Assembly (NCBI GenBank): GCA_049318805.1
Contig: JBMOFP010000002.1
Location: 9,273 to 73,272 of the forward strand
Length of the DNA stretch: 64,000 bases
Direction: 5' to 3'
From: Bradymonadia bacterium
GTDB lineage: Bacteria; Myxococcota_A; Bradymonadia; UBA7976; UBA1532
Shown here one piece after another: positions 6,655 to 17,393 of the stretch (position 1 is the first letter of the stretch; every line of letters begins with the position of its first letter). Both the position numbers and the translations under genes were made by a program. The notes beneath the pieces are model-generated. The model was not told the DNA's origin. It saw only the letters and a program-made list of their open reading frames with translations, and did no database searches.

Positions 6655-8931
6655 ATGCGAATCGTTTGCGTGGGCGGAGGACCGGCGGGGCTGTATTTCG
6701 CCCTGCTCATGAAGCGCGCCGACCCGCGCCACGAGGTGCGGGTCGTTGAACGCAACCGCGCGGACGACACGTTCGGCTGGGGTGTCGTCTTCTCCGACGC
6801 CACTCTGCAGAACCTCGCGGCCGCCGATCCGGAGAGCCACGACGCCATACGGGCGGCCTTCCAGCACTGGGACGACATCGAGGTCCACTTTCAGGGGCGC
6901 GTCTTGCGCTCCGGGGGACACGGCTTCTGTGGCATCGGGCGGCGTCGTCTGCTGCAGATCCTGCAGGCGCGCTGCGTGGCCGTGGGTGTCGATCTCCAGT
7001 TCGAGCGCGAGGTCGCCGACGACGCGGAGTTCGCGGACGCGGACCTGATCGTCGCGACCGACGGCATCCACAGCCCCTTGAGGCGCAAGTACGCCGACGT
7101 CTTTCGCCCCGAGATCGAGCAGCGGCACTGTCGTTTCATCTGGCTGGGCACTCGAAAGCGCTTCGACGCCTTCACGTTCCTCTTCGCGGAGACCGAGTGG
7201 GGCTGGTTCCAGGTCCACGCCTACCAGTTCGACGAAGAGACGAGCACCTTCATCGTCGAGACCCCGGAGGCGGTGTGGCGCGCGGCCGGGCTCGACCAGA
7301 TGAGCGCCGCGGAGAGCGTCGCGTTCTGCGAGCGCCTCTTCGCGCCGTGGCTCGACGGACACGCCCTCCTCCGCAACGAGCGCCATCCGCGGGGGGGCGA
7401 GTGGATCACCTTCCAGCGCGTGAGTAATGCCCGGTGGTTCACCGGACGCGTCGTGCTCATGGGGGATGCCGCGCACACCGCCCACTTCTCCGTGGGCTCC
7501 GGGACCAAGCTCGCCATGGAGGACGCCATCGCCCTCAGCGAGGCGCTGTCCACGTGCGCGACGCTGCCCGAGGCCCTCCAGAAGTACGAGGACGAACGAC
7601 GCCTCGAGGTCCTGAAGATCCAGAACGCGGCGCGGAACAGCACCGAGTGGTTCGAGAACGTCGAGCGCTACGTCAACCTGCCGCCGGAGCAGTTCGCCTA
7701 CAGCCTGCTGACACGCTCGCAGCGGCTGTCCCACGAGAACCTGCGGGTCCGCGACGCCGGCTACGTCGCGGAGGTCGAAACCTTCTTCGCGCGGCAATCC
7801 GGGCTCGAAGCACGGCCCGTCGCGCCGATGTTCACGCCGTTTCGGGTCCGCGACCTGACGCTGAAGAACCGGGTCGTCGTTTCGCCCATGGCGATGTACT
7901 CGGCCACGGACGGCGTGCCCGGGGAGTTTCACCTGGTGCACCTCGGCAGCCGCGCCCACGGCGGCGCCGCGCTGGTCATGACCGAGATGACCTGCCCGGA
8001 GCCCGACGCCCGCATCACCCCCGCGTGCCCCGGCCTGTGGAACGTGGAGCAACGCGACGCGTGGCGCCGAATCTGCGACTACGTCCACCGTGAGACCTCC
8101 GCCGCGATCGGGCTGCAGCTGGGCCACGCCGGTCCGAAGGGCTCGACTCAGATCGGCTGGGCGGAGATGGACGCGCCGCTCCCCGAGGGGAACTGGCCGC
8201 TCCTGGCGCCGAGCGCGGTCGCGTGGAGCCCACGGAATGCAACGCCGCGCGCCCTGGACCGGGCCGAGATGGTGCGGGTGCGCGACACCTTCGTGCAGTC
8301 GACGCGCTACGCCGCCGAGGCCGGCTTCGATTGGCTCGAGCTCCACGCGGCCCACGGCTACCTGCTCTCGGCGTTCTTGTGTCCGCTCACGAACCTGCGG
8401 ACCGATGAGTGGGGTGGAAGTCTCGAGAATCGTTGCAGATTTCCTCTCGAGGTGTTCTCGGCGATGCGGGCGGTCTGGCCGCACGACCGCCCGATGTCCG
8501 TGCGCATTTCGGCCCACGACTGGGCGCCGGGCGGGAACACGGACGCGGACGCTGTCCAGATCGCGACGCTTCTCAAGGGCGCCGGCTGCGACGTCGTGGA
8601 CGTCTCGTCGGGGCAGACCACGCGCGCGGCGCGCCCGGTCTACGGCCGCATGTACCAGACCCCGTTCTCGGACCGGATTCGCAACGAGGTGGGCATCGCG
8701 ACACTCGCCGTGGGCGCGATCTTCGAGCCCGACCACGTGAACGGCATCATCGCCGCGGGTCGGGCCGACCTCTGCGCACTCGCGCGGCCGCACCTCGCGG
8801 ACCCCTACTGGACCTTGCACGCGGCCGCGCAGACCCAGCAGGACACCCACTGGCCGCCGCAGTACCTGACCGGGCGCGCTCAGCTCGAGCGCAACCTGCG
8901 CAAAGGCGGGCCCGTCGAGACCTCGGGATGA
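6655..8931 (+). CDS. bifunctional FAD-dependent aromatic-ring monooxygenase / Old-Yellow-Enzyme-type NADH:flavin oxidoreductase; 2-aminobenzoyl-CoA monooxygenase/reductase-like
   Basis: N-terminus has GXGXXG FAD fold ([12 protein letters not shown]) and salicylate-hydroxylase-like motifs. C-terminal about 350 aa is an OYE TIM barrel ([35 protein letters not shown]). Adjacent to the aryl-CoA ligase and kyn genes. Confidence 0.7.
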
Positions 8932-8941
8932 GGAGCAGAGC

Positions 8942-9781
8942 ATGAACGATTGGCTGGCGAGTCACGGCAAACGCCCGTTCGCCGAATACCCTGCGCGCCA
9001 CTTCCAGTGGCAGGTGGACGCGGGCGTCGCGACGCTCACGTTGAGCCGCCCCGAGCGCAAGAACCCATTGACCTTCGACGCCTACGCGGAGCTCCGGGAC
9101 TTGTTCGTCGCGCTCGAGTTCGCGAGCGACGTCCACGTGGTCGTGCTCGCCGGGGCCGGGGGCAACTTCTGCTCGGGTGGAGACGTGCACGAGATCATCG
9201 GTCCGTTGACGCGGATGGCGATGCCCGAGTTGCTCACGTTCACGCGCATGACCGGCGCGCTCGTGCGCTCGATACGCAAGTGTCCGCAGCCGATCGTGGC
9301 CTCGGTGGACGGCATCTGCGTCGGCGCCGGCGCGATTCTGGCGATGGCCTCGGACCTGCGCTTGTGCACGCCCCGAACGAAGACGGCTTTCCTCTTCAAC
9401 AAGGTCGGGCTGGCCGGGTGTGACATGGGCGCGTGCGCGATCCTCCCGCGCATCATCGGCCAGGGCCGGGCGAGCGAGCTGCTGTACACCGGTCGTGTGA
9501 TGACCGCGGCCGAGGGCCTCGCGTGGGGCTTCTACAACAGCGAACACGCCCCGGAAGGGGTGCTCGAGGCCGCTCAGGCGCTGGCCCGCAGCCTCGCGAG
9601 CGGCCCGACCTTCGCCCACGCCATGACCAAACGGCAGCTCCACGCGGAGTGGAACGTCTCGGTCGACGAGGCCATCGAGGCGGAGGCCGAGGCGCAGGCG
9701 ATCTGCATGCAGACCCAGGACTTCCGGCGCGCGTACGAGGCCTTCGTCCGCAAAGAGACCCCCGTCTTCGAGGGCAACTGA
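8942..9781 (+). CDS. enoyl-CoA hydratase/isomerase (crotonase family)
   Basis: Crotonase fold motifs ([42 protein letters not shown]). GAGGAG RBS before ATG 8942. Confidence 0.8.
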
Positions 9782-15457: not shown

Positions 15458-15476
15458 CGACCTCTCCCGGATTTGG

Positions 15477-17393
15477 TTACGTCACACGCGCGCGACGCTG
15501 GAAGGCGGGGTCTCGCCAGGTCTCGCGCTCGAGGACGTCGCGCAGAGCCTCGACGGCGTCCCACACGTCTCGAAACGAGAGGTACAGCGGCGCGAAGCCG
15601 AAACGAAGGATGTCGGGCGCGCGAAAGTCGCCGATCACGCCACGGGCGATCAGCGCCTGCATGACGGGCCACGCGTTCGGGTGGCGCAGGCAGACCTGAC
15701 TCCCGCGCTCGTTCGGCGCACGGGGTGTGACCACCTCGAGACCGTGGCCCGCGCACCGCTGCTCGACCCAGTCGATGAAGTGGCCCGTCAGTGCCACAGA
15801 CTTCGCCCGCAGGGCCTCCATGGGGGCCGCCAGCACCGTCTCGACGCCCACCTGGAGCGCGGCGAGAGAGAGCACCGGCGGGGTCCCGCAAAGCAGCCGC
15901 TCGATGCCGGGGGCGGGCGCATACTCGGGTGTGAAGTCGAAGGGCGCTGCGTGCCCCATCCAGCCCGCCAGCGGCGAGCTGAAGGCCGCCTGGTGACGCG
16001 CGGCGACGAAGGCGAACGCGGGCGCGCCCGGGCCGCCGTTGAGGTACTTGTAGCCGCACCCGACGGCGAAGTCGGCCCCGGCGGCGTTCAAGTCGACGGG
16101 CACGGCGCCTGCGCTGTGGGCCAGGTCCCAGACGACCAGGGCGCCGTGGGCGTGGGCCGCCGCCGTGAGCCGGGCCAGGTCGTGCATCGCCCCGGTCCGA
16201 TAGTTCACGTGCGTCAGCATCAGGACGGCCACGTCCGAGTCCAGCGCCGCCTCGGGGTCGTCCACCGCGTCGACGACATGGCTCCGGGCGAGCAAGTCGC
16301 GCAGCCCCTGGGCGACGTAGAGGTCCGTGGGGAAGTTGCTGCGCTCGCTCACGATGCGTCGACGGTCGCCGCGCATCGCCAACGCCGCGGAGAGGACCTT
16401 GAAGAGGTTCACCGAGGTGCTGTCCGCGACGATGACCTCGCCGGGCGCTGCGCCGACCAGCCGCGCGATCTGGTCGCCGACGCGCCGCGGCAGGTCGATC
16501 CACCCGGCTGTGTTCCAGCTTCGAATGAGGTCCTGGCCCCATTCGCGCTCGATGACCGCGCGCAAGCGCGCCGGCGTGGCGCGCGGCAAGGGGCCCAGCG
16601 AGTTGCCGTCCAGGTACACGACGCCGGGGGGCAGGTCGAAGGCGTCTCGGTGGACCGCGAGCGGGTCCGCGCGGTCCAGGTCCGCGGGTGTCCTTCGCGA
16701 GGGCTTCTCGACCTGGTCGGCGCGGGACAACGGCCCACGGAGGACCGCCCGCACGGGGGCGGCGTCGCAGTCTTCGACCTTGAGCGGCAAGGCGATCAGC
16801 TCGTAGTCGCCTTCAGGCACCGCGTCGAGCACGAGGTTCTCGAGGATGCCCATGCCGTGGCGCGCGATGGCGGCATGGGCGTCCATGGTCTTTGAACTCT
16901 CGGGATCGAGCGAGGGGGTGTCGATGCCGATGAGCTCGACCCCATGCGCCGCCAGGAGGTCGATGACCTCGGGGTGGACCGCCGTGAAGTCGCTCGCCCA
17001 GCGCTCTACGGCCGCCTTCGCCTGCGTTCTCAGCAGGACCCGGGGCGGACACCCTTCGAGGTGCGCGGCGAGCGCCGAGGCGTCGACCCGCCCGACGGCG
17101 TCGAGAACGTGCACGACCCGACACGGGCCGAGGTAGCGCTCCAGCGCGAGGCCGCCGACCGTCGCGCCGTCGCGCCGATAGTGGGCCGGCGCGTCCGCGT
17201 GGGTGCCCGCGTGGGAGGAGAGCACGAGGCGCGATACGTTGACCGGGCAGTCCTCGGACAGGACCCAGATCCGTCGTTCGTCGAAGTCGGTGTCGCCGGG
17301 CCAGGTGGGCATACCCACACGGAGCGGCGCCGAGATGTCCCAGAGGCGCATGTGGTCGAGCATCGCGCACGCGATGCGCCACCGCAAACTCAA
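15477..17393 (-). CDS. kynBU: fused kynurenine formamidase (cyclase family, N-terminal) and kynureninase (PLP-dependent, C-terminal)
   Basis: N-terminal 210 aa has [39 protein letters not shown] as in KynB. Residues from about 250 onward have [17 protein letters not shown] and the PLP-lysine region [11 protein letters not shown] as in KynU. One 638-aa frame with no internal stop. Confidence 0.75.

Follow-up and report, generated by a model that had tools for sequence, protein, structure and literature searches.

Two convergent operons of a Bradymonadia bacterium predicted to carry tryptophan through anthranilate into 2-aminobenzoyl-CoA metabolism

Can a bacterium of the predatory lineage Bradymonadia degrade tryptophan and, if so, by which route? 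The question is raised by nine genes at 6655-17393 of the window, i.e., of the whole 64-kb stretch (64,000 nucleotides) of contig JBMOFP010000002.1 (assembly GCA_049318805.1) analysed here, where a preliminary description made from the sequence alone had recognised a compact island for the catabolism of tryptophan via anthranilate and 2-aminobenzoyl-CoA. All nine genes that it named are present where it had placed them, and on the strands that it had assigned. Most likely, the cluster lets this predatory bacterium of soil or sediment degrade tryptophan via anthranilate and its CoA ester. The pathway itself is already known: it was discovered in Azoarcus evansii and has been predicted for others, Cupriavidus and Arthrobacter among them. 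The literature recognises that tryptophan can be degraded by way of anthraniloyl-CoA monooxygenase/reductase (ACMR), and the steps that follow the flavoprotein have stayed unresolved for decades, which is why a curation effort of 2022 omitted the pathway.

Because the DNA of the window is approximately 70% G+C, coding frames were picked by third-position GC, which singled out one frame per gene (0.86-0.92) throughout 6655-17393. Families were called with Pfam and NCBIfam models at their curated cutoffs, and solved structures served as further comparators.

Two convergent operons and a fused KynB-KynU protein

Seven of the genes lie on the plus strand and two on the minus strand, forming two operons that meet tail to tail, their stop codons (at 14601 and 14621) lying 19 bp apart. 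The arrangement had been called bidirectional; the orientation is convergent, not divergent. Spacing between neighbouring genes ranges from a 4-base overlap, as between the start of the ligase gene and the stop of the acyl-CoA dehydrogenase gene, to a 27-base gap; the flavoprotein and crotonase genes are 10 bp apart, and 19 bases separate kynA from the fused kynB-kynU gene (kynBU). Five plus-strand genes, encoding the ACMR-type flavoprotein, ligase, crotonase, acyl-CoA dehydrogenase and Rid protein, show the tightly spaced, single-strand layout of an abm-type operon. An island in the mobile sense is not what the DNA suggests: no significant flanking repeats were seen, the nearest tRNA gene is 24 kb off, and composition does not shift, GC being 0.68-0.72 inside the cluster versus 0.65-0.70 in its flanks.

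The kynurenine arm occupies the minus strand. Its kynA gene (14621-15457, minus strand, 278 aa) encodes tryptophan 2,3-dioxygenase (PF03301; 427 bits on TIGR03036, cutoff 390.7), and kynBU (15477-17363, minus strand, 628 aa) encodes an arylformamidase domain (KynB, aa 16-219; TIGR03035, 289 bits, cutoff 223) joined through an 18-residue linker to a kynureninase domain (KynU, aa 238-622; TIGR01814, 309 bits, cutoff 246). With all three curated models passed, both the kynA assignment and the fusion of the preliminary description are borne out. Among solved structures, the KynB domain gives 259 bits to kynurenine formamidase 4cog, and the KynU domain 497 bits to the Pseudomonas fluorescens enzyme 1qz9 versus 138-162 bits to the human one. 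The P. fluorescens kynureninase prefers kynurenine and the human enzyme 3-hydroxykynurenine. The translation contains the metal-binding motif HxGTHxDxPxH in KynB and the pyridoxal phosphate (PLP) lysine region in KynU, assigned by analogy with the solved enzymes; the fusion homologues have kept both.

The DNA does encode a fusion, since no stop codon separates the two domains either in the window or in independent assemblies, the open reading frame running unbroken here and in L001, L003, L085 and L004. It may start at ATG 17363 (628 aa) or at TTG 17393 (638 aa); the latter had been chosen in the preliminary description, and the former, as called in relatives, is the likely start. Public records differ on this gene: NCBI entry MFZ4734432.1, a “kynureninase” of 417 aa, corresponds exactly to the C-terminal 417 residues of the fusion, beginning at an internal TTG (16728-16730) and leaving out the arylformamidase domain; JGI and ENA, on contigs nearly identical to this one, call the 628-aa fusion. 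Such fusions are rare but not unique. Three occur among the best 120 homologues in a collection of 5.8 billion proteins, two of them Bradymonadia-like and one set in an AsnC-kynBU-OprD context. In a scan of 1.84 billion cluster representatives, the best 150 included no KynB-KynU fusion, a result that speaks for rarity and not absence, because fused members sit in clusters represented by unfused proteins. A fusion of this kind is easily derived from a kynB-kynU pair 13 bp apart, as in the Burkholderiales-like locus L044. The best-150 list does contain other architectures: P0344 has the reverse domain order, KynU then KynB; P0413 carries a weak cyclase/KynB-like stretch (27% identity) before its kynureninase domain; and P0284 and P0288 are each extended at the N terminus by approximately 290 aa with no match to the window proteins compared.

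The same nine genes stand in the same order beside rpoZ and fliJ in three other, related metagenome assemblies, L001/L002, L003 and L085, their proteins being 90-99% identical to those of the window in L001/L002 and 66-91% identical in L003 and L085. Synteny at 66-99% identity shows that the cluster is real and not a chance run of open reading frames. The position of kynA and kynBU relative to the abm operon is kept in all four Bradymonadia-like assemblies.

The flavoprotein, the ligase and their predicted substrate

The plus-strand operon opens with a FAD monooxygenase/OYE fusion of the ACMR/AbmA type (6655-8931, plus strand, 758 aa), comprising FAD_binding_3 (aa 3-318) and Oxidored_FMN (aa 392-727). 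The protein scores above the cutoff of the equivalog NF006101 (1319 bits, cutoff 1078; profile positions 1-759 of 768 covered), in agreement with the fused monooxygenase/reductase first read from the sequence. The protein is approximately 70% identical to hundreds of homologues labelled anthraniloyl-CoA monooxygenase by JGI, 51% identical, from end to end, to the ACMR of pAL1 from Arthrobacter sp. Rue61a, and 100% identical to NCBI MFZ4734424.1, an entry from a metagenome-assembled “Bradymonadia bacterium” (phylum Myxococcota) named bifunctional salicylyl-CoA 5-hydroxylase/oxidoreductase. The pAL1 flavoprotein, too, is labelled salicylyl-CoA hydroxylase in RefSeq, and because this enzyme, encoded beside a verified anthranilate-CoA ligase, shares the name, the name of the NF006101 family is not diagnostic of the substrate. 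The context of the kyn genes and of an anthranilate-type ligase points to a 2-aminobenzoyl-CoA (anthraniloyl-CoA) monooxygenase/reductase, which is the function predicted here.

The ligase gene (10973-12580, plus strand, 535 aa) encodes an AMP-forming aryl-CoA ligase of the AbmG type with AMP-binding and AMP-binding_C domains. Over the full length it shares 51% identity (536 aligned residues) with the pAL1 ligase. That protein, when expressed in Escherichia coli, showed anthranilate-CoA ligase activity, and anthranilate-grown Rue61a cells contained anthraniloyl-CoA (PMC3534580). The best solved relative of the window protein is the anthranilate-CoA ligase AuaEII (4wv3), and it is orthologous, at 54-69% identity, to ligases inside catabolic abm operons. 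By these similarities it is a predicted anthranilate-CoA ligase.

How constant the company of the flavoprotein is can be read from a species survey, in which one genome per species was scanned for flavoprotein relatives and the best 80 loci were retained (mostly Burkholderiales, with some Chloroflexota, Gemmatimonadota and others); partner genes were counted in the 58 of these loci whose DNA extended 7 kb or more downstream of the flavoprotein gene. Orthologues of the crotonase (61-77% identity) and of the acyl-CoA dehydrogenase each accompany it in 54 of the 58, the Rid protein in 53 and the ligase in 46, so that the co-occurrence check proposed in the preliminary description finds the core partners beside ACMR in 46-54 of 58 loci. 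Kynurenine genes are found there as well. The Burkholderiales-like loci L025 and L044 have separate kynB, kynU and kynA genes, in the gene order of the window and divergent from ACMR, and in L005 and L010 (Chloroflexota) kynU lies inside the abm operon; the linkage of kyn and abm genes has arisen independently in unrelated lineages. The complete nine-gene set was seen, in this sample, only in the Bradymonadia-like assemblies.

Operon co-occurrence, the independent kyn linkage and the 51% identity of the ligase to a verified enzyme jointly support the 2-aminobenzoyl-CoA reading of the cluster, which probably encodes the route from tryptophan to 2-amino-5-oxocyclohex-1-enecarbonyl-CoA. On this route KynA would open the indole ring to give N-formylkynurenine, the arylformamidase domain of the fused KynB-KynU would remove formate, and its kynureninase domain would split kynurenine into anthranilate and alanine. 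The ligase would then convert anthranilate into 2-aminobenzoyl-CoA, and the flavoprotein would hydroxylate C5 with O2 in its FAD domain and reduce the ring in its FMN/OYE domain, yielding the non-aromatic 2-amino-5-oxocyclohex-1-ene-1-carbonyl-CoA. For the chemistry of this last step we rely on published work on the enzyme of Azoarcus evansii (PMC4539516, PMC3534580). The sequences themselves show the identities of the genes, the layout of the operons, their conservation and the linkage across lineages; we infer the substrates throughout, the sequence of reactions beyond the flavoprotein and the co-regulation of both arms.

Several observations weigh against such a reading. NF006101 carries the salicylyl-CoA 5-hydroxylase/oxidoreductase name; the ligase reaches 365.5 bits on the benzoate-CoA-ligase family model, just below its cutoff of 375, and benzoate-CoA ligase structures come within 10 bits of AuaEII. 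The cluster is without a 3-hydroxyacyl-CoA dehydrogenase, thiolase, transporter or regulator, family scans having found no MarR gene in the operon and no helix-turn-helix protein in 6100-17400. On their strand the kyn genes come downstream of genes unrelated to them and may share a longer transcript with these. In the Rid protein a methionine replaces the catalytic arginine of RidA (Arg105 in the enterobacterial enzyme). Finally, our attempt to derive glutaryl-CoA on paper by simple steps failed, leaving the role of the glutaryl-CoA dehydrogenase (GcdH) chemically unexplained: by our own reasoning, hydrolytic opening of 2-amino-5-oxocyclohex-1-enecarbonyl-CoA at C1-C2 gives 4-oxopimelyl-CoA and opening at C5-C6 a 2-methyl-3-oxoadipyl-CoA skeleton, and neither leads simply to glutaryl-CoA. 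As to the regulator, a MarR gene lies between the flavoprotein and crotonase genes in many other loci (L012, L005, L063), and an SDR gene takes this place in L054, neither being present there in the window; we treat MarR as an accessory and not a defining feature of the abm operon.

The family name brings in a salicylate route, in which salicylate would first be activated to its CoA ester, the flavoprotein would turn salicylyl-CoA into gentisyl-CoA and the thioesterase would release gentisate, the kyn genes being unrelated. Both the best NCBIfam model and the identical NCBI protein are named for salicylyl-CoA 5-hydroxylase, the operon does encode a thioesterase, and a route from salicylate through salicylyl-CoA and gentisyl-CoA to gentisate has been described in Streptomyces WA46 (PMC4600096). 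The pAL1 enzyme, however, bears the same name while adjoining a verified anthranilate-CoA ligase in an anthranilate degrader, and the conserved crotonase, acyl-CoA dehydrogenase and Rid partners are not needed on the way to gentisate. No gentisate 1,2-dioxygenase candidate was seen in the family-model scans, which covered part of the window, and kyn genes have joined the operon repeatedly in unrelated lineages. A salicylate route is therefore considered very unlikely.

The ligase scores likewise raise the question of whether ligase and flavoprotein act on another aromatic acid, such as benzoate, 3-hydroxybenzoate or a substituted aminobenzoate. The benzoate-CoA ligase model is the best NCBIfam match of the ligase and the 3-hydroxybenzoate-CoA ligase model the second best, and the small difference between AuaEII and the benzoate-CoA ligase structures fits the same idea. 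Aerobic benzoyl-CoA catabolism, on the other hand, depends on the BoxAB epoxidase instead of a flavoprotein of this family; the partner genes match those of anthranilate degraders, and a kynureninase that would release anthranilate is encoded 2 kb away. A substrate other than anthranilate and its CoA ester thus appears highly improbable, and the 2-aminobenzoyl-CoA route is followed below.

Partner genes and the lower pathway

The family calls made earlier for the aryl-CoA ligase, acyl-CoA dehydrogenase, hotdog thioesterase and glutaryl-CoA dehydrogenase were all reproduced, and those for the two remaining partners need qualification. The gene at 8942-9781 (plus strand, 279 aa; ECH_1; NF006107, 479 bits, cutoff 330) had been called an enoyl-CoA hydratase. 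Its product does belong to the crotonase superfamily, with a pattern at its active site like that of PaaG isomerases. These are also its nearest characterised relatives (140 bits to 4fzw_C and 156 bits on TIGR02280), and, aligned to PaaG structures, it shares the GAGAILA pattern and places the Asp of GCDMG opposite the PD motif of PaaG. Judged from this alignment to PaaG structures, an Ile appears to stand at the position of the first catalytic Glu of canonical crotonases. By sequence, the protein resembles PaaG-type isomerases more than canonical enoyl-CoA hydratases.

The second qualification concerns the Rid-family (YjgF/L-PSP) protein (12997-13389, plus strand, 130 aa; Ribonuc_L-PSP), which had been named RidA. 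Its membership in the Rid superfamily stands, but it is not RidA: it reaches 59.9 bits on the RidA model TIGR00004 against a cutoff of 106, and the Arg-to-Met change mentioned above recurs in all 13 abm-linked Rid sequences aligned, as well as in the Rid protein of pAL1. The cluster protein is accordingly placed, on its sequence, in an abm-specific, Arg-less subfamily. In RidA the catalytic Arg binds the carboxylate of 2-imino acids, and its loss would fit a CoA-thioester substrate. A canonical RidA is encoded elsewhere in the window, at 41790-42200 (minus strand; 172.6 bits on TIGR00004, PARS motif kept), adjoining a tRNA-Arg gene (41378-41454), so the genome has both a housekeeping RidA and the Arg-less cluster Rid.

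Three further enzymes complete the operon. The acyl-CoA dehydrogenase (9783-10976, plus strand, 397 aa) has three acyl-CoA dehydrogenase domains, and its best NCBIfam models, acryloyl-CoA reductase and cyclohexane-1-carbonyl-CoA dehydrogenase, both score below cutoff. The hotdog-fold thioesterase (12584-13000, plus strand, 138 aa; Pfam 4HBT_2 and 4HBT) is an accessory member, with orthologues in the same operon position in 19 of the 58 loci (33-46% identity). The last gene (13417-14601, plus strand, 394 aa) gives, over residues 8-394, 634 bits to the solved Burkholderia pseudomallei GcdH and 600 bits to the human enzyme (GCDH), and it is these solved structures that identify its predicted product as a glutaryl-CoA dehydrogenase of the decarboxylating type. 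True GcdH orthologues (67-79% identity) occur in 10 of the 58 loci, and another in an eleventh, shorter locus, L048; the gene directly follows the Rid gene in most of them, is the last of the operon in the four inspected, and closes the operon in at least two other layouts, with and without a ligase gene.

What these proteins may do after the flavoprotein can be sketched as follows. The Arg-less Rid protein would hydrolyse the enamine or imine CoA ester and release ammonia; the PaaG-like crotonase and the acyl-CoA dehydrogenase would isomerise or open the ring and process the resulting chain; the hotdog thioesterase may rescue CoA from dead-end esters such as 5-hydroxyanthraniloyl-CoA; and the glutaryl-CoA dehydrogenase would act at the exit of the pathway. 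It is tempting to go further and to suppose that the cluster and its relatives outline the whole lower 2-aminobenzoyl-CoA pathway, with the Arg-less Rid deaminating a CoA-bound cyclic enamine, the PaaG-like crotonase and an alicyclic-type acyl-CoA dehydrogenase processing the ring without oxygen, glutaryl-CoA as the exit, kynurenine channelled within KynB-KynU, and the nine proteins sufficient for the task; in this full form, the proposal is speculative and rather doubtful.

Even so, the PaaG-like crotonase, the acyl-CoA dehydrogenase, the Arg-less Rid and the recurrent GcdH make up a short list of candidates for the lower pathway, and the Arg-less Rid subfamily gains a concrete candidate substrate, a CoA-bound enamine. 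The cluster also corrects public annotation. An automated metabolic reconstruction of this predatory lineage would miss tryptophan catabolism, because the public flavoprotein entry carries the misleading salicylyl-CoA 5-hydroxylase name and the public kynureninase entry is without the arylformamidase half of the fusion.

Surroundings of the cluster and relation to known systems

Directly 5' of the plus-strand operon, the region 6533-6654 (plus strand) holds a block conserved among the four relatives aligned, including GCATCGTGGCACAG, GACAAGGGG and a hexamer, TTGACG, that stands some 50 bp 5' of the start codon of the flavoprotein gene. The hexamer resembles a -35 element, and the conserved blocks may be candidate promoter or operator elements; a simple scan for the sigma-70 consensus found no full promoter match. 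In the GC-rich DNA a terminator scan returned two terminator-like sites versus 4.3 expected. Between rpoZ and the flavoprotein gene, and divergent from the operon, lies a small open reading frame of approximately 115-122 aa (6164-6532, minus strand) with no Pfam or NCBIfam match. A gene of 111-116 aa occupies the same place in L001, L003 and L085, and a conserved CTCCTGT (AGGAG on the strand of the frame) stands just 5' of its likely start. Flagellar export and regulation genes (window 42-5742, with fliJ confirmed at 5284-5742) lie directly 5' of rpoZ and the cluster, and the domains encoded at 1-9093 of L085 include FliP, FliQ, FliR, FlhB, FlhA, an SRP54-type GTPase, a ParA/MinD-like ATPase and a sigma factor.

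On the other side, kynBU is preceded on its own strand by a 112-aa gene (17390-17728, minus strand) and then by a KAS III-like gene (17782-18819, minus strand), with gaps of 26 and 53 bp. The former has no family match and, by eye, is like a degenerate receiver domain; the latter is divergent (60-89 bits on FabH models, far below cutoff) and has Cys, His and Asn in motifs resembling those of FabH. Divergent from it, at 18862-22190 (plus strand), are genes for an Hpt-domain protein and a hybrid histidine kinase (HisKA, HATPase_c, receiver). They are followed at 22194-30678 (minus strand) by a run resembling fatty acid and polyketide synthase (FAS/PKS) genes, encoding a FadH/OYE-type Fe-S flavoenzyme, an SDR ketoreductase, a FabF-like ketosynthase, an acyltransferase and two more ketosynthase-domain proteins. 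The flavoenzyme (639 aa) has mycofactocin OYE, BaiCD and bilirubin reductase as its nearest models, all below cutoff. L001 has kept this run beside the kyn genes, and L085 has kept at least the first gene of it.

Such neighbours suggest another reading, namely that the two arms are separate: the kyn genes would supply anthranilate or kynurenine elsewhere, e.g., as the starter unit of a compound made by the KAS III-like and FAS/PKS-like genes, and the abm operon would degrade external anthranilate. Anthraniloyl-CoA does serve as a starter for quinolone-type products, through PqsD in Pseudomonas and, in a myxobacterium, through the type II PKS for aurachin; among solved structures AuaEII comes closest to the ligase, and kynBU follows the 112-aa and KAS III-like genes on the same strand, or, in L085, directly follows the FadH/OYE-like gene of a KS-AT-KS-SDR (ketosynthase-acyltransferase-ketosynthase-SDR) cluster. 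The 112-aa, KAS III-like, Hpt and kinase genes, however, are present in L001 and absent from L085, which makes them a lineage-specific insertion outside the cluster, and a PqsD-like quinolone unit formed by the first two was dropped from consideration, both being absent from L085 where the cluster is otherwise intact. The kyn genes, by contrast, hold a constant position against the abm operon in the four Bradymonadia-like assemblies, the kyn-abm linkage recurs in genomes without such neighbours, and the orthology of the ligase is with ligases of catabolic abm operons. Separate arms are accordingly judged unlikely, and the reading of a single route from tryptophan to the CoA ester is retained for the comparison with known systems.

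With the phenylacetate (paa) pathway the predicted route shares CoA activation, O2-dependent dearomatisation of the thioester and non-oxygenolytic processing of the ring, and the hotdog thioesterase may rescue CoA as PaaI does. The dearomatising enzyme differs, a flavoprotein fusion standing in the place of the di-iron PaaABCE; the window has no PaaZ-type ring hydrolase and no PaaJ thiolase, and all paa model scores are well below cutoff. The sdg cluster of Streptomyces sp. WA46 is closer in its flavoprotein, SdgC, which falls in the same NCBIfam equivalog and likewise carries out para-hydroxylation of an ortho-substituted benzoyl-CoA (PMC4600096). A CoA ligase step and thioester hydrolysis are also common to both, but the sdg route needs gentisate 1,2-dioxygenase and cleaves free gentisate, whereas the window has a crotonase, an acyl-CoA dehydrogenase, Rid, GcdH and kyn genes.

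The kynurenine arm has the same three activities as the kynA, kynB and kynU systems of Pseudomonas, Burkholderia and Cupriavidus, and its sequences are of the proteobacterial type (PMC8879955). Its KynU domain is 65-70% identical to stand-alone kynureninases of Burkholderiales, and the B-U-A gene order is shared with L044. Unlike typical kyn systems, the window encodes KynB and KynU as one polypeptide, has no adjacent Lrp/AsnC-type regulator, and would send anthranilate into the CoA pathway, not to anthranilate dioxygenase and catechol.

In the pAL1 cluster (L086, 22136-29049), the ligase and ACMR genes are adjacent, the Rid protein has the same Arg-to-Met change (38% identity), and a thioesterase is present, as in the window. 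The two differ in that pAL1 encodes a protein of the fumarylacetoacetate-hydrolase family, a small cupin and PaaX regulators, and is without crotonase, acyl-CoA dehydrogenase and GcdH, a gene content that suggests a different lower pathway in actinobacteria, possibly via a free hydroxylated aminobenzoate. The source of anthranilate differs as well: quinaldine in the pAL1 strain, tryptophan in our reading of the window.

Azoarcus evansii is a betaproteobacterium, whereas the window belongs to a Myxococcota chromosome. The A. evansii cluster of 2001 reportedly contained a MarR regulator and an ABC-transporter binding protein, both absent from the window, and is said to share with it a crotonase, an acyl-CoA dehydrogenase and a “translation-inhibitor” (Rid/L-PSP) protein. 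An Aromatoleum buckelii locus (L083, 10001-12304) with an ACMR-family gene 61% identical to the flavoprotein gene product had been considered as a reference cluster for the Azoarcus genus, in which the enzyme was discovered; it has no ligase, crotonase, acyl-CoA dehydrogenase or Rid partner within 10 kb, and this orphan gene was set aside. By description, the A. evansii system also matches the window in its AMP-forming ligase and its FAD-monooxygenase/OYE fusion of approximately 85 kDa (PMC4539516). To this common core the window adds the hotdog thioesterase, GcdH and the whole kynurenine module, and what is new here is a lineage with no earlier description of the route, together with a rare fusion, the absence of a regulator gene from the operon and a gene set of unusual completeness.

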